DNA of 64,000 bases from Pyrinomonadaceae bacterium (lineage in GTDB: Bacteria; Acidobacteriota; Blastocatellia; Pyrinomonadales; Pyrinomonadaceae). How positions within the stretch are numbered: the first letter of the stretch is position 1; each line of letters starts with the position of its first letter. Below, in pieces: positions 19,232-40,479 of this stretch. The notes below the pieces were generated by a model. That model saw only the letters and a program-made list of their open reading frames with translations. It searched no databases and was not told where the DNA came from. The stretch is taken from the NCBI GenBank assembly GCA_044228265.1, contig JBGAVC010000011.1, positions 816-64,815 of the forward strand, in the 5' to 3' direction. The position numbers were made by a program, and so were the translations under genes.

Positions 19232-19237
19232 AACAAC

Positions 19238-19286
19238 GGTGCTCAGTTGTCAGTGGCAAGTCGTCAGCAATTGACCACCGACCACT
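19238..19286 (-). repeat. intercistronic hairpin with 7-nt periodic arms (GTGGYCA/TGRCCAC-related), rpoA-rplQ spacer
   Basis: GGTGCTC AGTTGTC AGTGGCA AGTCGTC AG / CAATTGA CCACCGA CCACT. Confidence 0.7.
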
Positions 19287-19290
19287 CTTC

Positions 19291-20307
19291 TTAGTCTAGG
19301 TCTCTTCCTCCGGAACCGGGAATGGGATTGCCCTGTTCATCGAAATCCATCCCGAAATCCAGTCCCATGCCGTGAAGCATGTCCTTGATCTCGGTCAGCG
19401 ATTTCTTGCCGAAATTCTTTGTGCCGAGCATGTCTTTTTCGCTGCGGCGGATGAGGTCGCGGATCGAGCGAATGTCAGCGTTCTTTAGGCAGTTGTATGA
19501 CCTTACGGAAAGCTCGAGTTCGTCGACGGATTTATCCAGCAGATCATTGCGCATCAACGGCGGACGCGCAATGTCCTCGTACTTGTATTCTTCTTCCTCT
19601 TCTTCGAAGTTGATGAAGATGGTCATGTGGTCCTTGACCAGTTTGGCTGCCAAGCCGATCGAATCCTCGGGTTTCACCGATCCGTCGGTCCAAACCTCGA
19701 TCGTAAGCCGGTCAAACTCGGTGTTCGAACCCTGTCGCGTTTTATCGACCGTGTAGTTCACCTTCTTGATCGGCGTGTGGACCGAGTCGATCGGAATATA
19801 GCCGACCGAGAGGTCTTCGTCGTTGTTCAGTTCGGCCGAGACGTATCCGCGTCCTGATTTGAGCCGCATCTCAATATTGATCGAACCGCTCGCACTGACC
19901 GTTGCGATGTGGACCTCGGGGTCAAGCACCTCGACATCACCATCGGCAACAATGTCGCCGCTCATCACCTCACCCGCTCCCTTTTTACTGATCGATAGTG
20001 TCTTTGGCCCCGGGCCGTGAAGTTTGAACGGTATCTGCTTGAGGTTGAGGATAACGTCAGTTGCATCTTCGACGACGCCTTTTATGGAGGAGAATTCATG
20101 CTCGACGCCGTCGATCTTGACTGCGGTAATCGCAGCGCCCTCGATCGAGGACAGTAGGGCCCTCCGGATGGAGTTGCCGATAGTCGTCCCGAATCCTCTC
20201 TCAAATGGTGCGGCATAGAACTTACCGTAACGTTCCGACAAGGTCTCGTTCTCTACGTTCAGACGACCCGGCATCTGGAAATCTGTCCAATTATTGCTCT
20301 GTGTCAT
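19291..20307 (-). CDS. rpoA: DNA-directed RNA polymerase subunit alpha
   Basis: 338 aa. N-terminal domain ([28 protein letters not shown]) and C-terminal domain ([22 protein letters not shown]). Confidence 0.97.
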
Positions 20308-20328
20308 AAATTTATACGTTCAAATGAG

Positions 20329-20391
20329 AGTTTAGAGCCCAACGGGTTTAGAGGTGCAGTCGATCTGCAACGAAACCCGATGAACTCTAAA
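20329..20391 (-). repeat. long imperfect intercistronic hairpin with repeated GTTTAGAG units, rpsD-rpoA spacer
   Basis: GTTTAGAGCCCAACGGGTTTAGAGGTGCAG-TCGAT-CTGCAACGAAACCCGATGAACTCTAAAC. Confidence 0.8.
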
Positions 20392-20402
20392 CGACAGGCT
20401 GA

Positions 20403-21035
20403 CTACTTGCTGTAAAGCTCAACAATAAGCTGCTCGTTAATGTTAGCGTCGATGTCCTCGCGCCGAGGGCTGCCCGATACCGAAATACTGTATTCCTGTG
20501 CACCCGCGCTAAGCCACGAAGGACGGCCTCGGCCGACCGCCGTCTGCCATGCGCCTTCCACATGCGGATTCTTCTGGCTGCGGTCCTTGACCGTCACGAC
20601 GTCGCCCGTCTTGACCTGGAACGAAGGAATATTGACCTTGCGGCCGTTCACGGTAATGTGCCCGTGATTGACAAGCTGTCGGGCCTGGCGCCGCGAAGTC
20701 GAGAATCCAGAGCGATAGACAACATTGTCCAGTCGCCGCTCAAGCATAAACAAAAGGTTCTCGCCGGTGACACCCTTCTGCCGGAGAGCCTTTTCGAAAT
20801 AGTTACGAAATTGCTTTTCCAGAATGAAGTAAATGCGCTTTACCTTCTGTTTCTCGCGAAGCTGCTCGCCATAACCTTGGAGCATCTTTCGTCGCGCTGC
20901 TCCGTGCTGGCCGGGAGGATTGGTCCCCCGTTTTTCGATCGCACATGAGGGCTTGTAACACCTGTCGCCCTTCAAAAATAACTTTCCGCCTTCGCGGCGG
21001 CACAATCGGCACACCGCATCTCTGTATCTAGCCAT
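20403..21035 (-). CDS. rpsD: 30S ribosomal protein S4
   Basis: [31 protein letters not shown]... (Cys-cluster form) with an S4 RNA-binding domain. Confidence 0.95.
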
Positions 21036-21140
21036 ATTTTATTTTCCTGCCTCCGCGTTTTAAGCGGAAAAGTTTACAAGCCGATGGCTCTTCTTCCTTT
21101 CGATAATTCCTTTCCGTCTCAAAAATTTACATTTGAGATC

Positions 21141-21539
21141 TCAGACCCTTCTGCGTTTCGGCGGCCGGCAGCCGTTGTGCGGGATGGGCGTGACGTCGCG
21201 GATAGCCGTCACGCGAATGCCCGCCTGACTTACCGCTCTTATGGCCGATTCCCTGCCCCCACCGGGCCCTTTCACACGAACCTCTACCTCGCGCATGCCC
21301 GCCTCGACCGCCTTGCGCGCAACCTCCGAGGCGGCCTGCTGGGCCGCAAACGGAGTTCCTTTTCGCGAACCGCGAAAGCCGCGGGCTCCGGAAGAGGATT
21401 GGGCGACGAGATTACCGTTAGCGTCGGTGATCGAGATCAACGTATTATTGAAGGACGCAGCGATATGAACGATCCCGACGGGAATGTTCTTTCGCTCTTT
21501 CTTCTTGAAGGTCTTCTTTTTAGCTGCTGCTTTTGCCAT
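21141..21539 (-). CDS. rpsK: 30S ribosomal protein S11
   Basis: ...[22 protein letters not shown]...[11 protein letters not shown]... Confidence 0.95.
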
Positions 21540-21546
21540 TTGATTC

Positions 21547-21616
21547 TGTCATCGGCGGTCAATGGCCGGCGACCAGCGTCAGGAAGTCCTGATCACTGAC
21601 CACTGGCCACAGGCCG
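21547..21616 (-). repeat. intercistronic hairpin with 7-nt periodic arms (GTGGYCA/TGRCCAC family), rpsM-rpsK spacer
   Basis: GTCATCG GCGGTCA ATGGCCG GCGACCA GCGTCAGG ... CCTGATCA CTGACCA CTGGCCA CAGGCCGC. The right arm ends at the rpsM stop codon. Confidence 0.75.
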
Positions 21617-22000
21617 CTATTTCTTCCCTGGAGCCTTCTTCTTGGCGACGGCCGCTTTACGCGGGCCCTTTCGCGTTCGGGCATTTGTGCTTGTCCTCTG
21701 ACCGCGAACCGGCAGACTGCGGCGATGACGGAGCCCGCGGTAGCATCCGATGTCCATCAAGCGCTTGATGTCCATCTGAACACGCTTGCGGAGATCGCCC
21801 TCGATCTCACCGTCAGTGTCCAAGATGGCACGGATCTTATTCAGTTCGTCTTCGTTCAGGTCACGGATCTTGGTATCGTTGCTGATCCCGGCACGTTCGA
21901 GTATCGAAGCGGCGCGTGACCTGCCTACACCGTAAATATAGGTCATCCCGATCTGTGCCCTCTTGTTGGGCGGTAAATCTACTCCTGCAATACGAGCCAT
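21617..22000 (-). CDS. rpsM: 30S ribosomal protein S13
   Basis: [30 protein letters not shown]... Confidence 0.95.
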
Positions 22001-22009
22001 AACTGTCTA

Positions 22010-22123
22010 TTATCCCTGCCTCTGTTTATGCTTAGGGTTATCGCAAATGACGCGCACGACGCCTTTGCGGTGTATGATCTTGCACTTGTCGCAGATCTTC
22101 TTTACTGACGGTCGAACTTTCAT
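22010..22123 (-). CDS. rpmJ: 50S ribosomal protein L36
   Basis: Not in the supplied track (below its length cut-off). Minus-strand translation [37 protein letters not shown] (37 aa). Confidence 0.92.
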
Positions 22124-22137
22124 GATGTCTCACCTGC

Positions 22138-22359
22138 CTATTTGTAGCGATAAGTTATCCGTCCCCGCTTCAGGTCATAAGGCGACAGTTCCACAAGAAC
22201 CTTGTCGCCGGGCAGGATGCGAATGAAATTCTTCCGCATTTTGCCGGATATGTGAGCCAGGACCTCGTGCTGGTTGTCGTCGACTTCTACTTTGAACATC
22301 GCGTTCGGCAAAGTCTCCAACACGGTCGCCATGACCTCGATCGCTTCTTCCTTAGACAT
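22138..22359 (-). CDS. infA: translation initiation factor IF-1
   Basis: [73 protein letters not shown]. Confidence 0.96.
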
Positions 22360-22370
22360 ACCTCCATTGC

Positions 22371-22390
22371 CTAACCAAAGGATTGGTTAG
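22371..22390 (-). promoter_or_regulatory. perfect 8-bp hairpin just 5' of the infA Shine-Dalgarno
   Basis: CTAACCAA-AGGA-TTGGTTAG. On the minus strand it is followed by GCAATGGAGGT-ATG. Confidence 0.5.
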
Positions 22391-22431
22391 ACAAACCATC
22401 AATGTTACCCCGTTCCGCTGCATTTTTCAAG

Positions 22432-23217
22432 TCAAGCCGCAGCGGCCGTTGCAAGCTCACGCTTCTGTGCCTTTGTCAGCGTAAGTATCTCCGGTCCATC
22501 GGCGGTAACAGCCAGCGTGTGCTCGGCATGAGCAGACGGCTTGCCGTCCAGCGTAACTACGGTCCATTTATCGCTGAGCGTCCGCGTTTCGTGCGTTCCC
22601 AGATTGAGCATGGGCTCGATCGCAAAGCAATAACCAACACGGATCTTTTCACGTGTTCCCGCCCGGCCGTAGTTCGGTATCTGCGGAGCCTCGTGCATCT
22701 GCCGGCCTATGCCGTGTCCGGTATAGTCGCGAACTATGCCGTAGCCAAACTTTTCGGCGTGTTGCTGCACCGCGAACCCGATATCCCCGACACGGTTGTT
22801 AGCCCTTGCGGCCTGGATCCCGAGTTCAAGGCACTCCTCGGTGACGCGGATCAACTGCTTCAATTCGTCTGCTATCTCGCCAACCGGCAGCGTCATCGCG
22901 GTGTCGCCGACAAATCCCTGATAAGTCGCGGCCATATCAAGCGAAACAATGTCGCCCTCGACGAGCGGCGTCTCCTTTGAGAACCCATGGACGATCTCCT
23001 CATTGACCGAAGCGCAGATCGCGTACGGAAAACCGTGATAGCCGATAAAGGTCGGGATCGCTCCCGCATCCCGCATCATTTTCTCGGCCGCCCTGTTGAG
23101 CTCCATCGTTGAAACGCCCGGCCGGACCATCGTCCTAAGAGATTCTCGCACCTCGGCGATCAGCTCACCGACGGCACGCATCTTATCGAGGTCTTTTGCT
23201 GATTTCGCAAATATCAT
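22432..23217 (-). CDS. map: type I methionine aminopeptidase
   Basis: 261 aa. Metal-ligand pattern (VSLDMAATYQGFVGDTA; GHGIGRQMHE; FAIEPM; EHT). Confidence 0.95.
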   Translation of the reverse strand: MIFAKSAKDLDKMRAVGELIAEVRESLRTMVRPGVSTMELNRAAEKMMRDAGAIPTFIGYHGFPYAICASVNEEIVHGFSKETPLVEGDIVSLDMAATYQGFVGDTAMTLPVGEIADELKQLIRVTEECLELGIQAARANNRVGDIGFAVQQHAEKFGYGIVRDYTGHGIGRQMHEAPQIPNYGRAGTREKIRVGYCFAIEPMLNLGTHETRTLSDKWTVVTLDGKPSAHAEHTLAVTADGPEILTLTKAQKRELATAAAA

Positions 23218-23232
23218 CGACGCTCCGCAAGA

Positions 23233-23877
23233 CTATATCAATGAATCCACTTGACGATAGATGTCCTCGATCTCACCCGTACCGTCCACCTTTTTCAAGC
23301 GACCGGAACTCTCGTAAAACTCGAGCAGCGGCTTGGTCAACTCATCGTAGGTTTCAAGGCGGACCATGACCTTGTCTTCCGAATCGTCAGCACGATGTTC
23401 GAGTACGGCGTCCGGGTGAATGTCGCAGCGTCCATCGGCCTTCGGGGGCTTGGAGTAGATATTAAAGATCTCGCCGCATACAGGACACGAACGGCGTCCC
23501 GTAAGTCGCTTCAACAATTCATCCCTGGGAACATCGATCTCGACGGCCTGGATCGACTTGCCCTGTTCTCGAGCAAGATCCTCGAGCTGCCCGGCCTGGA
23601 CAGCCGTCCGCGGATATCCGTCCAGAATGTATGAACCGGACGCATCCGGCTTTGATGTTCGCTCCTTAACAATACGAAAAGTGATGTCGTCTGAAATGAG
23701 CTTTCCCGACGCCATGATCGCCTGTACCTCGCGAGCGAGCGGCGTGTCGGCGTTCTTCATTTCGCGGAACATATCACCCGTCGAGATCTGCGGGATCCCG
23801 CGTCTCTCTTGAAGCAGCCGGGCCTGCGTCCCTTTGCCGGCTCCCGGCGCCCCGATCAATACTACGATCTTGTCCAT
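23233..23877 (-). CDS. adk: adenylate kinase (zinc-lid type)
   Basis: P-loop GAPGAGKGTQ; lid CPVCGEIF...DGRCD. Confidence 0.96.
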   Translation of the reverse strand: MDKIVVLIGAPGAGKGTQARLLQERRGIPQISTGDMFREMKNADTPLAREVQAIMASGKLISDDITFRIVKERTSKPDASGSYILDGYPRTAVQAGQLEDLAREQGKSIQAVEIDVPRDELLKRLTGRRSCPVCGEIFNIYSKPPKADGRCDIHPDAVLEHRADDSEDKVMVRLETYDELTKPLLEFYESSGRLKKVDGTGEIEDIYRQVDSLI

Positions 23878-23883
23878 ATCTCT

Positions 23884-23958
23884 AACCGCAAAGACGCCGA
23901 GACGCAGAGTGAAGAAATATCAACTGATATTTCTCGGCGCCTCCGCGTCTCTGCGGTT
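23884..23958 (-). repeat. palindromic intergenic element, CGCAGAGA family, secY-adk spacer
   Basis: AACCGCAAAGACGCCGAGACGCAGAGTGAAGAAATATCA ... TGATATTTCTCGGCGCCTCCGCGTCTCTGCGGTT. It shares termini AACCGCAGAGACGC / GCGTCTCTGCGGT with 18058-18140. Confidence 0.85.
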
Positions 23959-23967
23959 CAGATCCGA

Positions 23968-25386
<1,419 letters not shown>

Positions 25387-25457
25387 AAGTTCCTCTCAAC
25401 GTTCAGGTGCTGACGATAGGACTGTCCGACAAGGGGGACGCTCGAAAGAGCGGGCCA

Positions 25458-25931
25458 TTAGGCCGCTGCTGCATCCGCTTTCACGATCTGCGTCGCGGTG
25501 CCGCCGGCTTTTTCGATCTTTTCCTTCGCGGTCTTGGTGAACCTGTGCGCCGATATCTTGAAAGATTTGGTCACGTCCCCGTTGCCAAGGATAACGAGGT
25601 CGTGTTTCGCCTTTTTGATCAGCCCGCGTTCGTGGAGTATCTCAGGCGTGATCTCGTCTCCGGCCTTAAAACTCTCCTCGATCTTGGCAATGCTGATCTC
25701 AAGCCACTGCTTCTTAAATATGTTGGTGAATCCGCGTTTCGGCAAGCGACGCTGAAGCGGCATCTGACCGCCCTCGAATCCGGGACGGCTGCTGTATCCA
25801 GAACGCGACTTCTGTCCTTTATGGCCGCGGCCGGCAGTTTTGCCGAGTCCTGAACCGGGACCGCGTCCGACACGCTTCTTTTTGTGCGTCGAGCCGGGAG
25901 CCGGGTGTAAGTTATTCAGTGATAATGCCAT
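25458..25931 (-). CDS. rplO: 50S ribosomal protein L15
   Basis: 157 aa from ATG 25931: [40 protein letters not shown]. The track ORF's 28-codon extension is rejected. Confidence 0.93.
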
Positions 25932-26007
25932 CTTTTTTCCTCTCAGATCGCAGTAAAAAATCAAGTCGATGCTCGGGCGAGTACCCTTTGAATACCACCC
26001 AGGCCGA

Positions 26008-26211
26008 TCAGTCAACGATCCTCAATAGATGCGGCACTTTCGCGACAATACCACGCGTAGCCGCGGAATCCGTCCGCTCGATCGTCTGATTAAGCTTTGT
26101 GATCCCAAGGCTCTTGATGATCTCCTTCTGCTTCTTGGAATACCCGATCATGCTCCGGTAGTACTGGATCCTGATCTTTCCGCCCTCGTTATTCTCTGCT
26201 TTCTTTGCCAT
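26008..26211 (-). CDS. rpmD: 50S ribosomal protein L30
   Basis: ...[52 protein letters not shown]. Confidence 0.9.
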
Positions 26212-26215
26212 TTTC

Positions 26216-26725
26216 TTAAATAAGCTCGTCGACCTGCTTGCCTCGCAGACGTGCGACCTCGATCGGGTCCTTCATCCTCAACAATCCGTTGAATGTCGCC
26301 CGAATGACGTTATGTGCGTTGTTGGATCCGAGGATCTTCGTTCGTACGTTATGAACACCGAGACTCTGAAGCACCGCCCGGACGGCACCGCCGGCGATGA
26401 CGCCGGTTCCCTCTTTAGCGGGTTTGAGCAGAACCCGCCCGGCACCATAAACGCCGATCAGTTCGTGCGGCAGAGTGCCCTCGATAAGCGGAACGCGGAT
26501 CAAGTTGTTTTTGGCCGCTTCGACAGCCTTCTTGATCGCGTTCGGCACCTCTTTTGCCTTGCCGGTACCAAAGCCTACGTGGCCGGCTTCGTCGCCTACA
26601 ACGACCAGCGCCGCGAACGACATGTTCTTGCCGCCTTTTACGACCTTGGTGACACGGTTGATCGAGATCAACTGGTCCTTGAGCAGCAACCCGCCCGGTG
26701 AGATCCTTTGTTTATTCTTCGTCAT
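26216..26725 (-). CDS. rpsE: 30S ribosomal protein S5
   Basis: ...[27 protein letters not shown]... Confidence 0.95.
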
Positions 26726-27119
26726 TGCTCTTTTCGTTTGATTCCTTTACCGCTGCTTCGTGCTTGTTCAATCCGGCCTCTCGTGTCGCATCGATCAGGG
26801 CCTTGACGCGCCCGTGATATACGTAACCGCCGCGATCGAAAATAACGCTCGATATCCCGGCCTTCTGCGCACGTTCGGCAATGGCCTTGCCAACAGTGCG
26901 GGCCGCTTCGACATTACCGCCCGTTTTTCCGGCCAACGCCTTTTCCGTCGTCGAGGCCGTTGCCAGCGTAGTTCCGGTCCTGTCGTCGATGACCTGAGCG
27001 TAAATGTGGTTCAGGCTTCGAAAGACCGCAAGCCTGGGCCTCTCGGCCGTGCCGCGAACTTTCTTACGGATGCGGCTGTGAACTCCCGCTCGTATGTCTG
27101 CTCTGCTTTTCTGTGCCAT
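26712..27119 (-). CDS. rplR: 50S ribosomal protein L18
   Basis: ...[31 protein letters not shown]... Overlaps the rpsE start by 14 nt. Confidence 0.94.
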
Positions 27120-27126
27120 AAACTTA

Positions 27127-27187
27127 GTTTCTTGTTTCCAGTTCCATCGTCGCGCCCACGAAACACGGAACGCGAAAACCAGGAACC
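27127..27187 (-). repeat. intercistronic hairpin with 7-nt periodic arms (GTTTCNN / GGAAAC family), rplF-rplR spacer
   Basis: GTTTCTT GTTTCCA GTTCCAT ... CACGAAA CACGGAA CGCGAAA ACCAGGAACC. Confidence 0.7.
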
Positions 27188-27192
27188 CGGAC

Positions 27193-27753
27193 CTATTTAC
27201 CTGTCTTGCCCGGCTTCAGCTTGTAATACTTATCCGAGTATCGGACGCCTTTGCCCTTGTACGCATCTGGCTTTCGCAGCCGGTTCAGTTCCGCTGCGAC
27301 CTGCCCGAGAAGCTGTTTGTCGATGCCGCTCAGCGTGATCGTCGTCTGATACTGATTGATCGATGTTTTGGTATTTATCCTCTCGGCCTTGGCTTCGATA
27401 CCGTCCGGCAACGCGTACTCGACCGGGTGCGAATAACCAAGAGCGAAAACAAGCTTTTTGCCCTGAACTTCCGCCTTGTAACCCACACCAACGATGTCGA
27501 GGTCTTTTTTGAAGCCCTCTGTCACGCCAACGACGGCATTGTTCGCAAGTGCTCTTGCCAGGCCGTGAAACGCGGCGAGATCGTCACCTGCGCGTTCCGC
27601 CACGAGGCTGCCGTCTTCCTGTTTGAAGGTGACTCCCGCCGGAATAGGCGTTTTTAGCGTGCCCTTTGGGCCTTTTACTTCCAGCTCTTGGTTGCCGACG
27701 GTAACGGTCACACCGGAAGGAATGCTGATCGGTTTTTTACCAACTCTAGACAT
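27193..27753 (-). CDS. rplF: 50S ribosomal protein L6
   Basis: 186 aa from ATG 27753: [31 protein letters not shown]. Confidence 0.94.
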
Positions 27754-27794
27754 AACTTTTATGGACCGGCTTACGAGAGCCAAATCCCTCATCC

Positions 27795-28187
27795 TTAATA
27801 TACTTCTGCAAGTATCTCGCCACCGACATTTTCCTTTCGTGCCCGCTTTCCGCTCATTAGCCCTTTGGAGGTCGAAACGATGTTTACGCCGTAACCGCCA
27901 AGCACGCGAGGTATTTCGCCGGAGCCGACATAGACGCGGCGGCCCGGTCGCGAAACTCGCGACAGGTGCGTGATCGACGAAACGCCCTTAGCATCGTACC
28001 TAAGAAAGACGCGGATCATGTACTTGACGCCTTCGCCTTTGGTCGAGAAATTATTAATGTAACCCTCTTCCTTTAGGATCCGCGCAACTTCTAGCTTTAA
28101 CTTTGAGCCCGGAATATCGACGCGTGTATGATTCGCTGCTATCGCATTGCGTATCCGCGTGAGCATATCGGCTATTGGATCTGTCAT
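27795..28187 (-). CDS. rpsH: 30S ribosomal protein S8
   Basis: [31 protein letters not shown]... Confidence 0.95.
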
Positions 28188-28221
28188 CTCTTCTAATTAA
28201 CTCCGTCTAAACTCTTGAATC

Positions 28222-28269
28222 CGGATCTTCGGCTTACAGTCCAAGATCCGCGATCTATTCTCGCGATCT
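28222..28269 (-). repeat. intercistronic hairpin plus direct CGCGATCT repeats, rpsN-rpsH spacer
   Basis: CGGATCTT-(13 nt)-AAGATCCG is a perfect 8-bp stem. CGCGATCT occurs at 28249-56 and 28262-69. Confidence 0.7.
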
Positions 28270-28271
28270 AA

Positions 28272-28577
28272 TTACCAACTCGACTTGGTGACTCCCGGTA
28301 TCTGGCCTTCAAGGGCCAACTCTCGCAGAGCGATCCTCGAGACGCCAAACTTCCTCAAGTAACCTCTCGACCGTCCCGTTTGCGAGCAGCGATTACGCAC
28401 CCTGATGGGACTGCCGTCGCGGGGCATCTTCTGGAGCCGAATTACCGCAGCGTCGACCTCTTCGGGTGTCGATCGCGGGTTATTGACGATCTTTTTGGCT
28501 TCAGCACGGCGCGCGGCCCACAATTTGACCTTGTCCTTACGCCGATCGTTCATGACTATCTTGCTTATCTTTGCCAT
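28272..28577 (-). CDS. rpsN: 30S ribosomal protein S14 (long, non-zinc form)
   Basis: 101 aa, ending ...[41 protein letters not shown]. Confidence 0.93.
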
Positions 28578-28593
28578 TTCTTTCTGGTCTTCC

Positions 28594-29627: not shown

Positions 29628-29630
29628 CTG

Positions 29631-29999: not shown

Positions 30000-30013
30000 A
30001 AAATCACCTCAAC

Positions 30014-30078
30014 CTGATCGTTGATGGTTGCCGGTCGATCGTCGCACGATTTCAACGATCAACGGTCCACGATCAACC
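30014..30078 (-). repeat. intercistronic hairpin with 7-nt periodic arms (GATCGTT/AACGATC family), rpsQ-rplN spacer
   Basis: CTGATCG TTGATGG TTGCCGG TCGATCG TCG ... CGATTTCAA CGATCAA CGGTCCA CGATCAA CC. The right arm touches the rpsQ stop codon. Confidence 0.7.
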
Positions 30079-30626: not shown

Positions 30627-30664
30627 TTCGTTCTCTTGTGATCGACGCTCTGACCCTGCGGTGC

Positions 30665-30865: not shown

Positions 30866-30868
30866 TTC

Positions 30869-31297: not shown

Positions 31298-31308
31298 AAG
31301 TTAGTCTC

Positions 31309-31416
31309 CAGTGGTCAGTGGTCAGTGGCCAGCGGCCAGTCGACTTGCGACCCTACATTTCTTAAGCTATCGATTCAATTTCTCATCTGACCACTGGCCA
31401 CCGGCCACTGACCACT
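31309..31416 (-). repeat. 108-nt intercistronic hairpin with 7-nt periodic arms (GTGGYCA/TGRCCAC family), rpsC-rplP spacer
   Basis: Left arm CAGTGGT CAGTGGT CAGTGGC CAGCGGC CAGT; right arm CTGACCA CTGGCCA CCGGCCA CTGACCA CT. The loop is ~46 nt. The right arm overlaps the rpsC stop codon (31415-17). The left arm ends 11 nt from the rplP ATG, abutting GGAG. Confidence 0.9.
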
Positions 31417-32149
31417 ATCTTCGATCGTCTCTCCTCGGGCCTCGATCATTCCTTCGTGCTCCGCGTTCGACCTTGACCTCGTTCATCGGGTCGGTCGTCG
31501 TTCCGCGCGCAATAGATGCATTAGGATCGAGTATTTCACCGCGGTAGATCCATACCTTGACGCCGATAATTCCAAAGGTCGTCAGTGCTTCGGCGAACCC
31601 GAAATCCACGTCCGCTCGCAGGGTATGGAGCGGAAGGCGGCCTTGCAGCGACCATTCGGTACGGGCGATCTCGGCCCCGTTCAGGCGGCCGGCGATCATT
31701 ACCTTGATCCCCTGGGCTCCGAATCGCTGCGATTCTTCCATCGTCTTTTTCATCGCACGGCGAAAGGCGATACGCTTTTCGAGCTGCTGAGTGATCTTTT
31801 CGGCCTGAAGCTGGGCGTTGAGTTCGGGATGGCGAATTTCCTGTATCGAGATCAGCACCTCGCGGCCCGTCTTTCTCGAAAGGTCCTCGCGGAGTTTCTC
31901 GATCTCGGAGCCCTTTCGGCCGATGATGATTCCGGGCCGGGCGGTATAAATGATGATCTTTAGCCGGGTGGCCGCACGTTCAATGTCGATGTGCGAAACG
32001 CCGCCGCCGCTGAACCGCCTTTTCAGATCACGCTTGAGCTTGAGGTCCTCGGCGAGAAACTCTGCAAACTCCTGTTTTGCGAACCAGTGCGAGTGCCAAT
32101 CTTTGTTGTATCCGACCCTAAAGCCGTATGGATGAACTTTCTGTCCCAT
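31415..32149 (-). CDS. rpsC: 30S ribosomal protein S3
   Basis: [24 protein letters not shown]... The C-terminal tail is Arg/Asp-rich. Confidence 0.96.
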
Positions 32150-32151
32150 AT

Positions 32152-32838
32152 TTATTGTTTCTCGAGCTCCTCGTTCGTGTCAGCCATCTTCTCATCGGCC
32201 GGAGCTTCTGCATTCTCTTCAGCTGTCGTCTGCGACTCAGCTTCTTTTGCCGCCGCAACCTCGGCTTCGCCCTCGGCAGCCTCGACGGCCGCCACCTGTG
32301 CCGGCGTTTCCTCGACTGGCGCCGCAACCGTTTCCTCAGCGATCGGCGTCGTCTCTACCTCTTCAGATTTTGACTTCTTGGCCTCTTTCTTCGGAGCGGC
32401 AGCTTTCTTCTTTTCCTTCTTCGGAGCGTCAGCCCTTTTCGCCTTGGCAGCTTCGGCCCTAAGTTCCTTCTCGGTCTTGGCCTTTTCCTCGCTCGTCACC
32501 TGGATCGTAATGTGGCAATAGTGACGCTGCTCGCGATAGGCCCTGCCCTGCGGAGCCGGTCGCATACGCCGGCGATTCTTCGTCGGGCCCATGTCGATGT
32601 AGCACAAGTTGACCCACAGATCGTCGGGGTCGATCGCTATGTTCTGCTGCTCGGCGAGAAACGTCGCGTTCGCGATCGCCGAATTAAGACATTTTGCGAT
32701 CGGCTGAGCGGCGCGCTTGTCGGTAAACTTGAGTATCGACAAAGCCTGCGACACATTCTGCCCGCGGATCAGATCGATCACGAGCCGGGCCTTACGAGGG
32801 CTTCCCTTGAGATATTTTGTTTTTGCTATCGCTTCCAT
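32152..32838 (-). CDS. rplV: 50S ribosomal protein L22 with a ~110-aa Lys/Ala/Glu-rich C-terminal extension
   Basis: The L22 core ([26 protein letters not shown]...HITIQVT) is followed by [62 protein letters not shown]... Confidence 0.9.
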
Positions 32839-32844
32839 CTTTTT

Positions 32845-32917
32845 AATGGTGAACAGTGAAGTGTGAATGGTGAATGGTCGTTCTTCGACTTATCACTCGT
32901 CACTCATCACTTATCAC
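32845..32917 (-). repeat. intercistronic hairpin with 7-nt periodic arms (GGTGAAN / NTCACNN family), rpsS-rplV spacer
   Basis: AATGGTG AACAGTG AAGTGTG AATGGTG AATGG ... CTTATCA CTCGTCA CTCATCA CTTATCA C. The right arm overlaps the rpsS stop codon. Confidence 0.85.
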
Positions 32918-33204
32918 TTTCTTTTCGCCGCTTTCTCTGCTTTCGTCCCGGGATGCCCCTTGAACATGCGCGTCGGTGAAAATTCGCCAAGCTTGTGTCC
33001 GACCATATTTTCCGTAATAAAGACCGGAATATGGCGTTTACCGTTATGTACTCCGAATGTCAGCCCGACCATATCGGGCGAGATCGTCGAACGACGTGAC
33101 CAGGTCCTGATCGCCGGCGGTTTCGGACCTCCGTCGGAGATACGGCGCATCGTTTTCTGGATGCTCAGGTCGATGAACGGTCCTTTCTTTACTGAACGTG
33201 GCAT
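32914..33204 (-). CDS. rpsS: 30S ribosomal protein S19
   Basis: [18 protein letters not shown]...[16 protein letters not shown]. Confidence 0.96.
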
Positions 33205-33214
33205 ATCTTATCTA

Positions 33215-33281
33215 GTGGCGAATGTTGAGCGGTGAACGGTGAATTCTCTTCACCCATCACTCATCATTCACAATTCATCAC
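33215..33281 (-). repeat. intercistronic hairpin with 7-nt periodic arms (GGTGAAN / NTCACNN family), rplB-rpsS spacer
   Basis: GTGGCGA ATGTTGA GCGGTGA ACGGTGA A ... TTCACCC ATCACTC ATCATTC ACAATTC ATCAC. The right arm overlaps the rplB stop codon. Confidence 0.85.
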
Positions 33282-34108
33282 TTTCTCCTGCGGTCTTTGA
33301 CGATCATGTTCGTCGTTCGTTTGTTCCTTCGGGTCTTGTAGCCGCGCGTCGGCTGTCCCCACGGAGTCACCGGGTTACGCCCGCCGGACGTTTTGCCTTC
33401 ACCACCGCCGTGCGGGTGATCGACCGGATTCATCGCCACACCTCGGACCTTGGGACGTTTGCCCATCCAGCGCGATCGTCCGGCCTTGCCCAGACTTACG
33501 TTTTCGTGCTCGGTGTTGCCTACCTGTCCGACCGTCGCCATGCATACGACCGGCACTTTACGTACCTCGCCAGAGGGCATGCGGAGCTGGGCAAAATCGC
33601 CTTCCTTTGCGACGATCTGTGCAAATCCGCCTGCGGAACGCACCATCTGGCCGCCTTTACCGGGCCGAAGCTCGATATTGTGAACTTCCGTTCCAAGCGG
33701 GATGTTCTTGATAGGAAGCGCGTTTCCAGGCAGAATGTCCGCCTCTTCGCCGCTCAGGATCATCGTACCGACCTTCAATCCCAGCGGAGCGATGATGTAA
33801 CGCTTCTCGCCGTCGAGATACGATATGAGCGCGATGTGCGCCGAACGGTTCGGATCGTACTCGATCTGTGCGACCTTACCCGGAATCCCGGATTTATCGC
33901 GCTTAAAGTCAATGATCCTGTAATGACGTTTGTGACCCCCGCCGCGACGACGGATCGTGATACGCCCGTCGCTGTTACGCCCGGAGATCCTCTTCTTTGG
34001 CTCCAGCAGTGATTTTTCGGGTACTGCGTTCGGAGTCAACTCATCGCGCGTCAGGTACGTTTGATAACGCCTTGCCGGTGATGTCGGTTTTAATCTCTTG
34101 ATTCCCAT
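33278..34108 (-). CDS. rplB: 50S ribosomal protein L2
   Basis: 276 aa from ATG 34108: [19 protein letters not shown]... The track ORF's 22-codon extension runs through the hairpin and is rejected. Confidence 0.95.
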
Positions 34109-34123
34109 ATTATTTCGATAGTG

Positions 34124-34186
34124 GATCGTTGCTCGTTGTTCGTTGCAGAGTCTCGATCGATCAACAACGATCAACGATCAACGATC
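34124..34186 (-). repeat. intercistronic hairpin with 7-nt periodic arms (GATCGTT/AACGATC family), rplW-rplB spacer
   Basis: GATCGTT GCTCGTT GTTCGTT G ... CAACAAC GATCAAC GATCAAC GATC. Confidence 0.88.
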
Positions 34187-34192
34187 GTCGAA

Positions 34193-34522
34193 CTAGATCG
34201 CTTCCGCGTAATCCACCATCGGTTCGCCCTTTCGCAGGGTTACGTAAGCTTTCTTGAATCCAGCACGGCGGCCCTCGATTCGTCCGCGTTTCTTTGCTTT
34301 TCCTTCGTAGAGAACCGTCCGCACCGCGGCGACCTTTACGTTGAAAACTTCCTCGACCGCGCCCTTGATGTCAGTTTTCGACGCCTTTTTGTCAACGCGG
34401 AACGTCAACACCTGTCCGGTCTTGCGGCCGCTGTTCTCTTCGGTCGAATCCTCCTTGAGGATCACGCTTTTTTCCGTGACGACGGGCGATTTAAGAATGT
34501 CCCAAACTCCAACCTTACTCAT
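34193..34522 (-). CDS. rplW: 50S ribosomal protein L23
   Basis: ...[13 protein letters not shown]...; the start overlaps the rplD end by 8 nt. Confidence 0.93.
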
Positions 34523-35402
34523 TTCCCTCGCCCTCCTTTTCGGCCGCCGGAAGCTCAGAGGCTTCGCCCGCCGGCGCTTCAGCCGGTTCCGTTACATCGG
34601 ACGGCTCTGTGTCTCCCGCTGCTTCCTTCTTGGCCTGTTTCGCAGGCTTCTCTTCTTTTTCGGCCTTCGGAGCTGCTTCCTTCTTGGCTTTCGGAGCCGA
34701 TTCCTTCTTTGCTTTTGGTTCGGCCGCAGGCGCGGTCTCCGCGACGTCCGTTCCTTCGGCCTTGGGATCCAACAGGCTGGTCAGTTCTTCGACCGCTGCT
34801 TTAGAGATCACAAGCTTCTCGTGATATATGATGTCGTAAATGTTCAGGCCAAAGCTGTTGGTCACCTTGGTCTTTTGGACGTTTCGCGACGAAAGCACGA
34901 GATTCTCGTTATCGAGGCTGTCCACGATCAAGGTCTTTGCTCGCTTTGCTTTCTCGACGAGGCCGAGCGAACCGAGTGCCGATAAGAATCCCTTTGTCTT
35001 CGGATCCTTGAATGTGATCTCGTCGACCACGATCAGGTTGCCTTCGCGAAGCCGTTCGGACAGTGCTGAACGTAGTGCACCGCGGCGCATCTTCTTCGGC
35101 ATCTGGTACGACCAGTCACGCGGCTGCGGTCCGTGAACGTTACCGCCGCCTTTCCAGAGCGGCGAACGCAAACTCGCGATGCGGGCGCGACCTGTGCCTT
35201 TCTGCTTCCAAAGCTTGCGGCCGGAGCCTGAAACGTTTCCGCGAGTTTTGGTCGCGGATGTTCCCTGCCGTCCGTTTGCCTGAAAATTTCGCACGGCTGC
35301 GTGGATCAGCGACTCGTTCAGCTCGACGCCAAACACGGCGTCCGACAATGCGATGTCGCCGACTTCTTTATTCTTTAAATTGCGAACCTTTACGGTAGGC
35401 AT
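34515..35402 (-). CDS. rplD: 50S ribosomal protein L4 with a ~85-aa Lys/Glu/Ala/Pro-rich C-terminal extension
   Basis: 295 aa from ATG 35402 ([21 protein letters not shown]...). The tail reads ...[66 protein letters not shown]... Confidence 0.92.
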
Positions 35403-35410
35403 AATTACCT

Positions 35411-35480
35411 CAGTGATCAGTGAGCAGTGATAAGTGAACAGTGAAGATCTCTCGTCACCCGTCACCCGTCACTCGTCACT
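35411..35480 (-). repeat. intercistronic hairpin with 7-nt periodic arms (CAGTGAN / CGTCACN family), rplC-rplD spacer
   Basis: CAGTGAT CAGTGAG CAGTGAT AAGTGAA CAGTGAA G ... CTCGTCA CCCGTCA CCCGTCA CTCGTCA CT. The right arm overlaps the rplC stop. The left arm ends 8 nt from the rplD ATG, abutting GAGG. Confidence 0.9.
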
Positions 35481-36117
35481 AGCTTTTCCTAACTACTACC
35501 AAACTTCCATTCGCTCCGGGCACCGCACCGCGGACCATAAGCAGGTTGTTATCGATGTCCACCTTCGCGATGGTCAATCCTTTGACGGTCACACGCTCGT
35601 CGCCCATATGTCCCGAAGAACGCGTTCCCTTGATCACACGCGATGGATATGCCGACTGTCCTATCGAACCTGGCCGACGGACATTCATAGAACCGTGCGA
35701 TTCGGGCCCGCGACTGAAATTGTGCCGTTTGACCGTGCCGGCAAAACCTCTTCCCTTAGAACGGCCAACGACCTCAACTCGGTCGCCGTCAGCGAAAAGA
35801 TCTACTTTTACCTGGTCGCCGATGGCAGCCTCCGGTTCCGCCGTCAGCCGGATCTCTTTTAGCACGCGGGTCGGCGGAATTCCTCCGCCGGTCTTTTCAA
35901 AATGGCCACGCAGCGGTTTCGTAACGTTTTTCGCCCGGATCGGCTTGTCCTCGACAAGTCCGAGTTGGACGGCGTTATAGCCGTCAGCCCCGGCGGCGCT
36001 TTTCGTCTGGACGACTACGCACGGACCGGCCTTGATGACGGTCACCGGTGTAACGGTCCCGTCCTCGGCAAAGATCTGCGTCATGCCAACTTTTCTACCG
36101 ATGATTCCACTGATCAT
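35479..36117 (-). CDS. rplC: 50S ribosomal protein L3
   Basis: [28 protein letters not shown]... Confidence 0.96.
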
Positions 36118-36125
36118 ATCTTTAA

Positions 36126-36212
36126 GTGATCGTCGTTCGTTGCCCGCTGATCGTTAGGCCTCGGCCCTGGCGTTCGACGACTCCAAGCGACGAACAACGA
36201 TCAACGATCAAC
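36126..36212 (-). repeat. intercistronic hairpin with 7-nt periodic arms (GATCGTT/AACGATC family), rpsJ-rplC spacer
   Basis: GTGATCG TCGTTCG TTGCCCG CTGATCG TT ... GCGACGA ACAACGA TCAACGA TCAAC. Confidence 0.8.
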
Positions 36213-36215
36213 TAT

Positions 36216-36536
36216 CTAGCTTTTCCCAAACGCCTTGATCTCGACATCGACGCCCGCAGGCAGGTCCAGTTTCATCAGCGCGTCGACCGTTTCGCTAGTC
36301 GGGTCGAGAATATCCATCAATCGCTTGTGCGTTCTGATCTCGAACTGCTCACGCGATTTCTTATCGACGTGAGGAGACCTGAGCACCGTCCATTTGTTCT
36401 TAATGGTCGGCAGGGGTATCGGCCCCGCGATCCTCGCTCCGGTTCTTTTCGCCGTATCCACGATCTCCTGGGTCGACTGGTCGAGAACGCGGTGATCGTA
36501 AGCCTTTAACTTGATGCGGATCTTTTCGTTTAACAT
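36216..36536 (-). CDS. rpsJ: 30S ribosomal protein S10
   Basis: [26 protein letters not shown]... Confidence 0.96.
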
Positions 36537-36539
36537 AGA

Positions 36540-37727
<1,188 letters not shown>

Positions 37728-37752
37728 ATCTTCTCCTAAATTCTTTGATCTC

Positions 37753-37798
37753 AGATCTGCGATCGTTTCGGATCGATCGCAAATCTCAATCGCAAATT
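37753..37798 (-). repeat. intercistronic hairpin plus direct ATCGCAAAT repeats, fusA-tuf spacer
   Basis: AGATCTGCGATCG-(9 nt)-CGATCGCAAATCT (12/13 bp). ATCGCAAAT occurs at 37777-85 and 37789-97. Confidence 0.7.
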
Positions 37799-37799
37799 C

Positions 37800-39896
37800 C
37801 TAGCTGCTTGCTCCCTTTACCTTGGCAATGATCTCTTCAGCGACGTTTCTCGGCGCCTCGGCGTAGCGTTCAAAATGCATGCTCGATGTCGCCCGGCCCT
37901 GCGTCGAAGACCGAAGGTCGGTCGTGTACCCGAACATCTCCGAAAGCGGCACAAACGCTGTAACTACCGAAACGTTGCCCGGACGCGGCTCCATCTTGTC
38001 GATCTGACCGCGACGACGGTTAAGATCGCCGTTGACTGCACCCATGTATTCTTCGGGTGTAACGACCTCTACCTTCATGATCGGTTCCAGTAAGACGGGC
38101 TTTGCCTTTTTCAATGCGTCCTGGAACGCAAGGCTGCCGGCGATATGGAAAGACCGTTCGTCCGAGTCGACCTCATGGTAGGAACCGTAAACAAGGCTCG
38201 CCTTGATATCGACCAATTCATACCCGGCAAGGAAGCCACGACGCATAGCGTCCCTGATACCTTCCGAAACCGGTTTGATAAACTGACGCGGGATGACACC
38301 GCCGGTGATCTTGTCCTCGAATACGAAGCCCTCGCCCGGAGCCGGCTCGATCTCGAGCTCGACGTGGCCAAACTGCCCGCGGCCGCCCGACTGCTTCTTG
38401 AATATTTCCTTTCCGGGTGCTCCTGCAGTGATCGTTTCGCGATAAGCAACCTGCGGTTTACCGACGTTGGCCTCGACACCAAATTCCCGCTTCATGCGGT
38501 CGACGATGATCTCCAGGTGAAGCTCGCCCATGCCGGCGATGATCGTCTGGCCCGTCTCATGATCGGTCGAAACCTGAAATGAAGGGTCTTCCTGAGCAAG
38601 CCGATTGAGGGCAATTCCCATTTTGTCCTGATCGGCACGCGTCTTGGGCTCAACCGCGACACGAACGACCGGATCCGGGAACTCCATCGACTCAAGGATG
38701 ATCTGCCTGGTCTCGTCGGAGATCGTTTCTCCGGTCGTGACATTTTTCATGCCGCCGATCGCGATGATCTCACCTGCGCTTGCCGATTCGACGTCCTCGC
38801 GCTTATTCGCATGCATCAGCATAAGGCGGCCGACGCGTTCCTTGGTGTTCTTGATCGTGTTGTAAACGTAGGAACCGGAATTAACGGTGCCGGAATATAT
38901 TCGGACAAAAGCGAGCTGGCCAAGATGTTTGTCGGCCATTAATTTGAAAACCAAACCTGCAAACGGAGCCTTCGCATCTGGTTCACGAGTCTCGACCGAG
39001 TCTGTCTTCGGATTGATCCCCTCGATCGCGGGAATATCCAGCGGGCTCGGCAAATAATCAACCACTGCGTCGAGCAACGTCTGGACACCTTTGTTTTTGA
39101 ACGCCGAACCTGTAAATACAGGGACGATCTTCATTGCGAGCGTTCCGGCGCGTAGTGCGTTGCGAAGTTCCGCTTCTGAGATCTCCTCGCCTTCGAGGTA
39201 CTTCATCATCAGATCGTCATCGACCGCCGAAACGGCCTCAACCAACGTTTCGCGTGCCGTCTTAGCCGCGTCAACGAGATCAGCGGGGATGTCAAGTGTT
39301 TCGTACTTAGCTCCTTTCGCCTCGTCATTCCAGACCAGAGCTTTCATCGTGATCAAGTCGACCACGCCCTTGAACTGGTCTTCAAGCCCGATCGGGATCT
39401 GCATTGCGACAGCGTTTGCGCCCAATCGTTTCAAGATCGAGTCGAACGAGCGATCAAACGAAGCACCGGCCCGGTCAAGCTTGTTTATAAAACAAATACG
39501 GGGCACGCCGTATTTGTCAGCCTGCCGCCAAACTGTCTCTGACTGCGGTTCAACACCGGCGACGCCGTCAAAAACACAAACCGCTCCGTCCAAAACTCGA
39601 AGGGACCGCTCAACTTCCATCGTGAAGTCAACGTGTCCCGGTGTGTCGATAATGTTGATGCGATGCTCGACGCCATTGCGCGTCCAGAAGCAGGTCGTAG
39701 CGGCCGACGTGATCGTAATACCACGCTCCTGCTCCTGCTCCATCCAGTCCATCGTCGCCGTTCCTTCATGAACTTCGCCGATCTTGTGCGAAACACCTGT
39801 GTAATACAAAATGCGCTCAGTCGCCGTGGTCTTACCCGCGTCGATATGGGCCATGATGCCGATGTTTCTAAATTTGTCTAAACTGATGTTCGCCAT
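37800..39896 (-). CDS. fusA: elongation factor G
   Basis: 698 aa: ...[26 protein letters not shown]... Confidence 0.98.
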
Positions 39897-39939
39897 AACA
39901 AAAAATAGGACCTACGAGTCTCATAGGACCTATCTGCCA

Positions 39940-40410
39940 TTAAAATCTATAATGTGCGAACGCCTTGTTCGCTTCCGCCATGCGGTGGACGTCGTCCTTT
40001 TTCTTCATCGCTCCGCCGCGGCCATTTGTCGAATCGAGCAACTCGCCTACCAAGCGGTCTTCCATCGTCTTTTCGCTGCGGTTACGAGCGTTCAATACGA
40101 TCCAGCGAATTGCAAGCGTATTGCGGCGGTCGCGGCTCACCTCGAGCGGGACCTGATAAGTGGCACCACCGATACGGCGAGACTTGACCTCCAGCGCAGG
40201 AGCTACTGCATCAAGAGCTTTCTTGAAGACCTTGAGCGGCTCCTCGCCGGTCTTTTCACCGATCCGCTCCATCGCGGCGTAGAAGATCTGTTCAGCGACG
40301 CTCTTCTTGCCTTCCCACATCAGGCCGTTGATGAACTTGGTCACGGCGATACTGTTATAGATCGGATCCGGCAATACTTCTCTTTTTCCTGCAACTCTTC
40401 GTCTTGGCAT
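39940..40410 (-). CDS. rpsG: 30S ribosomal protein S7
   Basis: [20 protein letters not shown]... Confidence 0.96.
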
Positions 40411-40428
40411 AAATCTATTGATTCATCG

Positions 40429-40479
40429 GGTTATTTGTTCATTTTTTCATTCGTGAACGACACAATGAACAAATGAACC
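40429..40479 (-). repeat. intercistronic hairpin with ~7-nt periodic arms (TGTTCAT/ATGAACA family), rpsL-rpsG spacer
   Basis: GGTTATTTGTTCATT ... AATGAACAAATGAACC (one bulge), with an inner TTCA-TTCG-TGAA. Confidence 0.8.

Follow-up and report, generated by a model that had tools for sequence, protein, structure and literature searches.

The 64,000 nt stretch of DNA analysed here (the window), from contig JBGAVC010000011.1 of a soil acidobacterium of the family Pyrinomonadaceae, carries a str/S10/spc/alpha block of ribosomal-protein operons on its minus strand, running from rpsL (40871) to rplQ (18728) and followed by accB and accC. The RpsC protein of the window is 86–98% identical to proteins from metagenome-assembled genomes of the Pyrinomonadaceae (Acidobacteriota, Blastocatellia). 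Exactly 23 junctions of the block measure 38–117 nt (the apparent infA–rpsM 'spacer' holds rpmJ), and ten of these are filled by the element that is the subject of this study: a 5′ array of three to five G/T-rich 7 nt units faces a complementary A/C-rich 3′ array, between the stop codon of one gene and the ancestral short ribosome-binding-site spacer of the next. Few parts of bacterial genomes are as conserved and as densely packed as ribosomal-protein operons, yet in this family they hold 10–15 hypervariable hairpins of 60–120 nt each.

Inverted heptamer arrays in the ribosomal-protein block

A first-pass annotation had described inverted heptamer arrays at about 15 of some 23 junctions of this block, able to pair in several registers, often overlapping the upstream stop codon and abutting the Shine–Dalgarno sequence of the next gene. 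The architecture is real: the arrays lie where they had been placed, and Tandem Repeats Finder (TRF) recovers the 7 nt period. The number of junctions also stands, but only ten of them are period-7 spacers, and 15 is reached only if about four period-8 or looser elements are counted. The ten have lag-7 autocorrelations of 0.48–0.67, and their hairpins are more stable than dinucleotide shuffles, the comparison that had been proposed and that underlies all fold z-scores given here (z −1.8 to −6.7).

The longest of these elements, in the rpsC>rplP spacer (117 nt, 31298..31414; this and all following block spacers are on the minus strand), sets four CAGTGGY units against four to five CTGRCCA units. 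It begins at the TAG stop codon of rpsC, with which it is in phase, finishes in the GGAG Shine–Dalgarno sequence of rplP, and folds with a minimum free energy (MFE) of −57.3 kcal/mol (z −6.7); the arms of its inverted repeat (I3) are 30 nt long and 87% complementary. At rplC>rplD (76 nt, 35403..35478; lag-7 autocorrelation 0.67, z −2.1), (GTGACGR)x4 faces (TCACTNN)x5, the left array being in phase with the TAG stop codon and the right array running into the GAGG Shine–Dalgarno sequence of rplD. Arrays are likewise in phase with the stop codon at rplB and rpsS: the GTGA-type arrays of rplB>rpsS (73 nt, 33205..33277; lag-7 autocorrelation 0.59, z −4.1) begin inside the TGA stop, and in rpsS>rplV (75 nt, 32839..32913; (AAGTGAT)n arrays, 0.63, z −3.8) the first array unit is the last codon plus the stop codon (aag-TGA-T / AAGTGAT / GAGTGAC). 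The reported contacts with stop codons and Shine–Dalgarno sequences are thus borne out at these genes.

Three spacers carry inverted arrays of the GTTGATC family, namely rpsJ>rplC (98 nt, 36118..36215; lag-7 autocorrelation 0.51, z −3.2; repeat family D3), rplW>rplB (84 nt, 34109..34192; 0.57, z −5.0) and rpsQ>rplN (78 nt, 30000..30077; 0.48, z −2.2). The remaining period-7 spacers are rplF>rplR (73 nt, 27120..27192), with GTTYCNG / GGAAAC-type arrays (0.48, z −1.8), rpsM>rpsK (77 nt, 21540..21616), with inverted arrays of the GTGGYCA family (0.50, z −3.9), and rpoA>rplQ (59 nt, 19232..19290), with short inverted arrays of the GTGGTCR family (0.48, z −2.7). The first bases of the window elements follow the local stop codon (TGGTCAG, TGACGAG, GTTGATC and others). 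Pairing in several registers is a property of all ten elements: after the best pairing diagonal, the next two are displaced by ±7 or ±14. For four of the ten, a shifted register costs no more than 4 kcal/mol relative to the optimum, and at rplC>rplD the registers 0, +7 and +14 differ by no more than 0.5 kcal/mol.

Around four further junctions hold related hairpins. Two of them have a period of 8: rpsL>rpsG (80 nt, 40411..40490), with the palindrome GTTCATTT / AAATGAAC (lag-8 autocorrelation 0.53, MFE −21.8 kcal/mol, z −3.7), and secY>adk (90 nt, 23878..23967), with CCGCAGAGACGCGGAGGCGC... (MFE −50.9 kcal/mol, z −7.3). A second copy of the latter palindrome family fills the accB>accC spacer (100 nt, 18046..18145, minus strand; z −4.7), just beyond the range first annotated, and the two are clear paralogues, with four arm matches in the window where 0.05 are expected. 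The fusA>tuf spacer (72 nt, 37728..37799) is a looser member, a hairpin with repeated GATTTGCGAT (lag-7 autocorrelation 0.38, z −4.2). The rpsG>fusA spacer (43 nt, 39897..39939) had been described as containing only a direct repeat. Its decamer TAGGTCCTA does occur twice, but it is quasi-palindromic and forms a hairpin followed by the T run TTTTTTGTT (z −3.7); it is not a heptamer array. To judge from its sequence, this hairpin inside the str operon looks like a terminator and could act as an attenuator. Among the window hairpins it alone qualifies as terminator-like: the heptamer hairpins have no T run after them, and because of this we rejected the reading of these elements as intrinsic terminators.

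Heptamer hairpins across the Pyrinomonadaceae and beyond

The corresponding junctions of related bacteria were extracted from the rpsC loci of 80 Pyrinomonadaceae genomes (L001–L080), giving 1603 junctions. A strict detector of array pairs was dropped in favour of an autocorrelation scan, as the repeats are only about 80% regular and the strict detector missed most of the window elements. A strong period signal was defined as an autocorrelation of at least 0.45 in a spacer of at least 40 nt, with shuffled copies and coding sequence as controls; the 'hairpin' flag of the scan was too lax for periods 6 and 9, where it picked up coding repeats, and was not used there. The best period was 7 in 598 of 1156 spacers of at least 40 nt, and a strong period-7 signal was found in 491 spacers, against one among the shuffled copies and none among the coding controls, which excludes chance as its source. 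By junction, 552 of the 1603 showed a period-7 or period-14 signal and 66 a period of 8 or 9, whilst 417 were short (<30 nt) and 538 were long without such periodicity. Heptamer hairpins are therefore a family-wide feature and not a quirk of one genome. An assembly artefact was also considered and rejected, the elements being present in 80 independent assemblies, complete and long-read ones included.

The elements of the family share the design seen in the window. Arms typically consist of three to four units, with a maximum of 6.7, and arrays are present in both arms in 74% of elements. The left unit is the reverse complement of the right unit at six or more of seven positions in 64% of elements, compared with 7% of arm pairs drawn across elements, so that the match between arms is one of consensus units. 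The median stem contains 27 pairs. Not every junction takes part: rplD–rplW, rplP–rpmC, rplR–rpsE and infA–rpmJ are always tight, and adk–map and map–infA are long yet never periodic. The map>infA spacer of the window (22360–22431) shows 83% conservation with that of L003, and a promoter-like TTGAAA-17-TAACAT lies within it. Small G+C-rich hairpins free of repeats, such as CGCGATTTATCGCG and ACGGGCTAAAGCCCG, replace the arrays at rplC>rplD in four genomes (L001, L011, L023 and L037) and at rplW>rplB in L004; these junctions thus host more than one kind of palindromic insert. The long non-periodic spacers of the same operons are strongly biased towards sense-strand folding (437 vs 158), which suggests that they are genuine RNA structures.

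Placement relative to the flanking genes is consistent. In the 80 genomes, 73% of arrays start inside the stop codon or no more than 6 nt past it, and from the last array base to the following start codon the median distance is 10 nt; just 11 of 626 period-7 regions are located in coding sequence. Where a junction is known in both states, the empty form measures 2–18 nt (for example TAA-GAG-ATG at rplN>rplX) and the filled form retains its short tail beside the ATG; the element therefore looks like an insertion or expansion just after the stop codon of an ancestrally tight junction. A core Shine–Dalgarno sequence within 15 nt of the start is found in 30% of filled and 56% of empty junctions, and in the empty ones it is often inside the upstream gene. 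In the predicted folds, the start region and ribosome-binding site are consistently left unpaired.

The first-pass annotation had placed the arrays at the cistron junctions of essential operons, and for the Pyrinomonadaceae this preference is real. In the window, 11 of 13 period-7 regions fall inside the 22 kb block (p=3e-4), and the architecture is absent from the roughly 25 intergenic regions beyond it. Since the 'outside-block' regions of the 80 rpsC loci consist of more ribosomal-protein junctions, seven further Pyrinomonadaceae loci around the PEPCK gene were used as the outside control. Their str/S10 part contains seven period-7 regions in 12 kb (5.85 per 10 kb) and the DNA outside the block five in 139 kb (0.36 per 10 kb), an enrichment of about 16-fold; the five outside regions include two false positives in coding sequence, as well as the rplU–rpmA junction.

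The elements are, however, confined neither to ribosomal-protein operons and cistron junctions nor to this family. An unbiased scan of metagenomes for the hairpin pattern of the commonest unit, GGATTTT, returned at least 120 sites, of which only about 10 adjoin genes of the block, though this is well in excess of the expected share of about 0.8% (p=6e-8); others lie at gap–pgk, rpoB–rpoC, rplA–rplJ, mdh–icd and thyA–folA. The host contigs range from 40 to 71% G+C and carry 255 period-7 regions in 625 kb, and single contigs hold many different units. In a greedy open reading frame (ORF) map, 42 of 121 metagenome elements fell 'inside' ORFs, a result that we discarded as an artefact of stop-free repeat frames. 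A GGATTTT/AAAATCC hairpin stands beside a cyanobacterial ntcA gene (389 bits, cut-off 245), and another fills rpoA>rplQ of a bacterium whose RpoA is 40% identical to that of the window. The architecture is thus present in other phyla. Two of 2.9 million viral contigs carry the pattern, L208 once (340–383) and L209 twice (512–562 and 1652–1697).

Comparison of the same junctions in related genomes, as the annotation had suggested, revealed extensive presence/absence and unit variation. There are 135 distinct heptamer units across the arrays, and each genome has about eight elements drawn from about five unit families, figures that refer to operon-sized samples. Genomes whose RpsC is 95–98% identical to that of the window carry unrelated units or an empty site at the same junction, and array length and sequence differ between close relatives. 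No spacer among the 80 genomes is more than 83% identical to that of the window, so exact gains and losses of units could not be read off. About 5% of element pairs have identical units, whether for the same junction in different genomes or for different junctions in one genome (5.3%), over a background of 1.8%, which indicates some vertical inheritance together with some within-genome spread or bias. The 262 nt rplB>rpsS spacer of L043 contains two tandem copies of an entire heptamer hairpin of about 95 nt, so growth is possible in element-sized steps as well as by 7 nt units.

Sharing of units within genomes raises the question of mobility, and the annotation had proposed repetitive extragenic palindromic (REP)-like elements that home to junctions. 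On this explanation, REP- or miniature inverted-repeat transposable element-like units would be spread by a Y1 transposase (REP-associated tyrosine transposase, RAYT, or IS200-type) or another transposase that prefers sites just past stop codons. One unit is found at up to 10 different junctions, two adjacent junctions of L075 share a loop sequence, within-genome unit sharing is about three times background, secY>adk and accB>accC are paralogues, the GGATTTT element occurs in distant phyla, and in L205 and L207 there are Y1_Tnp genes close to the str operon. The proposal nevertheless fits poorly, and we consider it distinctly unlikely. The variety of units within and between genomes leaves no single consensus, arrays are phased with the stop codon or Shine–Dalgarno sequence of their own junction, and viral carriage is confined to the two contigs above. 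No target-site duplication or fixed termini were evident when empty and filled junctions were compared, although no orthologous pair was close enough for an exact before-and-after view. The Y1 transposase of L205 scores as IS200 (78.6 bits) and reaches 23 bits with the RAYT model, against a cut-off of 80, and the Y1_Tnp genes of L205 and L207 are flanked by GCCCGCGTAGCGGGC hairpins and not by heptamer arrays.

These IS200-type genes are located between the str operon and PEPCK (L205 5900–6900, L207 4259–4498). In L205 the transposase gene has GCCCGCGTAGCGGGC and CCACGGG...CCCGTGG hairpins on either side, an association of REP-type hairpins with a transposase that has no relation to the heptamer arrays.

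Several other features of these sequences were recorded. Contigs of many of the L001–L080 assemblies end about 4.3–5 kb upstream of rpsC, at tuf, consistent with a second tuf copy that collapses short-read assemblies. Elsewhere in the window, a 196 nt direct repeat is present as two mostly intergenic copies (7797–7992 and 11746–11941), 98% identical and 3.9 kb apart. The repeat may represent a small mobile element or a gene for a small RNA, or else the duplication of a terminator region. At an ORF boundary (12993–13136) there is an imperfect GC-rich array, with about 20 CGGCGT-type copies and periods of 6, 9 and 12 nt, which is partly complementary to 55455–55505. The 280 nt spacer (16004–16283) ahead of the PNPase gene (13877–16003) contains a strong non-repeat hairpin, CAGAGACGAAAGG...CCTTTCGTCTCTG, which may be an rpsO terminator or a pnp leader. 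A tRNA scan of the window found nothing, and an Rfam scan of the whole window gave no match at the gathering threshold, known ribosomal-protein leaders and autoregulatory RNAs included.

Origin and possible role of the hairpins

The position and composition of the elements lead us to favour, tentatively and with slightly less than even confidence, the explanation that these self-complementary heptamer microsatellites arise by replication slippage and are kept through an RNA hairpin that loops the insert out and possibly stabilizes the mRNA. Arrays would grow, shrink and be replaced in 7 nt units by slippage seeded on the sequence of the local stop codon, and units would for that reason differ by site and genome. 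In the polycistronic mRNA, the arrays would zip into a hairpin of about 25 bp with several registers, looping out the extra 60–100 nt and leaving the stop and the next start about 10–15 unpaired nt apart, near the 2–18 nt of an empty junction. As a consequence, we propose, termination–reinitiation coupling would survive and the start region would stay single-stranded. The hairpin probably also shields flanking mRNA segments from exonucleases, in the manner of REP and phage T7 intercistronic hairpins, and selection would act on the hairpin and not on its sequence. Roles in mRNA stability, processing or coupling are plausible. The unrelated units or empty sites of genomes with near-identical RpsC, the variants with periods of 8, 9 and 14 and the duplicated element of L043 are turnover of the kind expected from slippage. 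Consistent with this proposal, other sites are in highly expressed operons (rplU–rpmA, rplA–rplJ, rpoB–rpoC, gap–pgk and mdh–icd).

Several observations weigh against this proposal. As 417 of the 1603 junctions are empty, in many thriving genomes, the hairpins are dispensable. Amongst the metagenome GGATTTT sites, 17 lie between convergent genes and occasional ones in divergent regions, where the count depends on the gene caller (4 of 58 elements by one method and 13 of 79 by the other, a matter of start-trimming). After folding, a median of 14 nt lies outside helices in spacers with a median length of 81 nt, compared with 16 nt in shuffled spacers, a difference so slight that the measure does not discriminate the looped-out model. 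When the order of unit variants was permuted within the 3′ arm, the fold was not weakened: real elements differed from permuted ones by a mean of +0.38 kcal/mol, with 126 elements more stable than their own permutations and 162 less stable. There is therefore no base-by-base compensation beyond the shared consensus unit, although a single change can be absorbed by a G-U pair or a register shift, which limits the power of the test. Finally, periodic elements fold almost equally well in sense and antisense (−25.9 vs −25.3 kcal/mol; 305 vs 240), unlike the strongly sense-biased non-repeat spacers beside them, a pattern that suits a palindrome at the DNA level better than an RNA refined by selection.

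The first-pass annotation had held that arms no more complementary than shuffled repeats would speak against a functional role, and on this point the answer is divided: the arms match by consensus (64% vs 7%, as above), but not base by base, as permuting the unit order shows. In the rplB>rpsS element, a five-genome alignment revealed two-sided, pair-keeping changes at four of 15 pairs, a weak sign of selection on pairing from a sample too small to weigh.

These results bear on an alternative in which the elements are a neutral or slightly harmful by-product of mutation, with a self-pairing insert simply the least harmful kind in a tight junction and no positive RNA function. Slippage in heptamers would be favoured intrinsically, and palindromic seeds directly past stop codons would expand in both arms. 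We judge this somewhat unlikely in itself, and nearly as good as the slippage-plus-hairpin explanation that we favour; it is preferred by both negative selection tests, the permutation and the sense/antisense comparison. Extreme turnover, with its many presence/absence differences, is in its favour, as are the lack of compensated unit variants, the near-equal stability of the two strands and the loose correlation between arm lengths (r=0.29). Comparable heptamer pairs in Xanthomonas have no known function despite study, and a slippage explanation for heptamer excess has been put forward by Mrazek (cited in PMC4692102). Such a by-product would not, on the other hand, be expected to concentrate about 16-fold in ribosomal-protein operons when other same-strand junctions are nearby, or to leave the ribosome-binding site consistently unpaired. 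Nor does slippage alone predict that arrays occur in both arms in 74% of elements, or the strict rule that the G/T-rich arm comes first.

Under this orientation rule, the 5′ arm is rich in G and T but poor in C (G 0.26, C 0.11) and the 3′ arm is A/C-rich, with G exceeding C in the 5′ arm of 463 elements and the opposite in 49. In the 80 genome loci, chosen without regard to the pattern, GGATTTT...AAAATCC was counted 15 times, and the reverse arrangement was absent from all 209 loci. As the element is palindromic, the rule holds on both DNA strands. This symmetry invites a DNA-level explanation, in which the element is a cruciform or other unusual DNA structure, perhaps a break-healing scar with G/T-rich repeats added to both 3′ ends, so that the 5′ arm would be G/T-rich on both strands. 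Strict convergent orientation, as a property of both strands, and near-symmetric sense and antisense folding are compatible with this idea, which we nonetheless regard as very improbable. Non-periodic hairpins in the same junctions share the G>C bias of the 5′ arm (332 vs 55), and the bias therefore points to a cause at the RNA level that is not specific to repeats. Placement at stop codons and ribosome-binding sites is also hard to explain in this way, and we know of no enzyme that adds site-specific repeat units. Under our favoured explanation, a G/U-rich arm transcribed first may avoid exposing a C-rich, G-poor, Rho-attracting stretch before the hairpin closes.

The elements might instead be cis-regulatory sites that set ribosomal-protein stoichiometry, either through RNase III processing or as arrays for a repeat-reading RNA-binding protein of the S1, cold-shock or CsrA type. 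Stems with a median of 27 pairs are long enough for RNase III, and the lower frequency of a core Shine–Dalgarno sequence near the start in filled junctions (30% vs 56%) is in keeping with such a role. Like TAACTGA repeats, also those in ribosomal-protein operons (PMC4679880), the 3′ arrays stop a few nt short of start codons. We think a regulatory role of this kind quite improbable, as the units are too diverse for a sequence-specific binder, the elements are missing from many orthologous junctions, no Rfam family matches them and the arrays are predicted to be base-paired, not single-stranded.

A more far-reaching explanation is a speculation that we think unlikely: register-degenerate hairpins would be a general, convergently evolved organizer of highly expressed polycistronic mRNAs. 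They would be created by transcription-linked slippage past stop codons and set with the G/U-rich arm first against Rho. When a terminating ribosome melted the base of the stem, the stem would re-zip in a shifted register and briefly free the next start, as a sliding coupling device rather than a fixed hairpin.

Irrespective of mechanism, 80 genomes with about 30 junctions each, filled or empty, amount to a natural experiment with hundreds of replicates. It bears on how much spacing and structure translational coupling tolerates, on whether intercistronic hairpins stabilize mRNA segments, on the over-representation of 7 nt repeats in bacteria and on the G-rich-arm-first rule of paired arrays. 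Short-read assemblies probably break at these elements, which might also be of use as markers to distinguish strains of Acidobacteriota on a fine scale.

Comparison with known repeat and hairpin systems

The REP elements of enterobacteria and Pseudomonas, with the related BIMEs and REPINs, are extragenic palindromes that are transcribed with their neighbours, either past the 3′ ends of genes or within operons; in Escherichia coli, REP hairpins stabilize mRNA. A genome has one or a few conserved REP consensus sequences with a GTAG or CGTC head and an associated RAYT. The Pyrinomonadaceae elements, by contrast, consist of diverse tandemly repeated units with no single consensus in the operon-sized samples, and inspection of the window elements revealed no GTAG or CGTC head. 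The hairpins that RNase III cuts between cistrons of the early mRNA of phage T7, and the Correia elements (Neisseria miniature insertion sequences, NEMIS), define and stabilize mRNA segments once cleaved. They are likewise long and intercistronic, but they have conserved sequences, proven cleavage and no tandem-repeat arms.

Tandem heptamers themselves are familiar from heterocystous cyanobacteria, where the classical short tandemly repeated repetitive (STRR) units are CCCCAGT, TTGGTCA and CAACAGT. Like the present arrays, STRR sequences are intergenic and often near start codons, whereas our host is an acidobacterium. Nostoc also has GGGGAYT and TTTTGAA heptamer repeats. Heptamer repeats near start codons in Nostoc had modest effects on reporters (bioRxiv 10.1101/2022.06.06.494920), and 'only a few' of the Nostoc arrays are paired (PMC4692102).

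Closer in position are the direct TAACTGA heptamers found just upstream of start codons in marine Beggiatoaceae, cyanobacteria and Bacteroidetes, inside ribosomal-protein operons too (fusA, L3, S4), where they appear to replace the Shine–Dalgarno sequence (MacGregor 2015; PMC4679880). They share with the Pyrinomonadaceae elements an end point a few nt upstream of the start codon and a distribution that spans phyla. The TAACTGA unit is fixed and predicted to be unstructured, with one inverted case among 170 sets (PMC4679880), and binding of the S1, cold-shock or CsrA type has been proposed. The elements described here differ in having varied units and a complementary partner array in 74% of cases.

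The closest precedent is in Xanthomonas campestris and X. axonopodis, where GGGAATC heptamer repeats form 70–75 convergent array pairs per genome (Rehm et al. 2015; PMC4692102). These pairs are always convergent and could form stem-loops; about 90% are intergenic, at an average of 28 nt from the upstream ORF, mostly between co-directional genes and under-represented between divergent ones. They are transcribed, vary between close species and, the authors state, have no known function, and the Mrazek proposal cited there holds that heptamer excess reflects the polymerase footprint during slippage (PMC4692102). The Pyrinomonadaceae elements have the same tandem 7 nt units in two convergent arrays, with the G-rich arm first and the capacity to form a stem-loop, and are similarly variable, located in transcribed regions and mostly intergenic near the 3′ end of the upstream ORF. 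They belong to this class of 'convergent' inverted heptamer simple sequence repeats, and the suggestion in the first-pass annotation that the architecture was undescribed does not hold. We found no paper on Acidobacteriota, or on heptamer palindromes that saturate ribosomal-protein operons, in a literature search of incomplete coverage; what appears not to have been reported before is the packing of heptamer hairpins into about half of the ribosomal-protein gaps, the paired heptamer class itself being already known.

Two differences set the Pyrinomonadaceae elements apart within this class. Xanthomonas has one dominant G-tract unit genome-wide, studied as a former of G-quadruplexes and with no preference for a functional gene class (PMC4692102), whereas each Pyrinomonadaceae genome has many unit families, mostly without G-runs; in the window, for instance, GTGGTCA, GTTGATC and GTGACGR are all free of G3 runs. 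In addition, unlike their Xanthomonas counterparts, the Pyrinomonadaceae elements are concentrated in ribosomal-protein operons, where they fill whole junctions from the stop codon to the ribosome-binding site.

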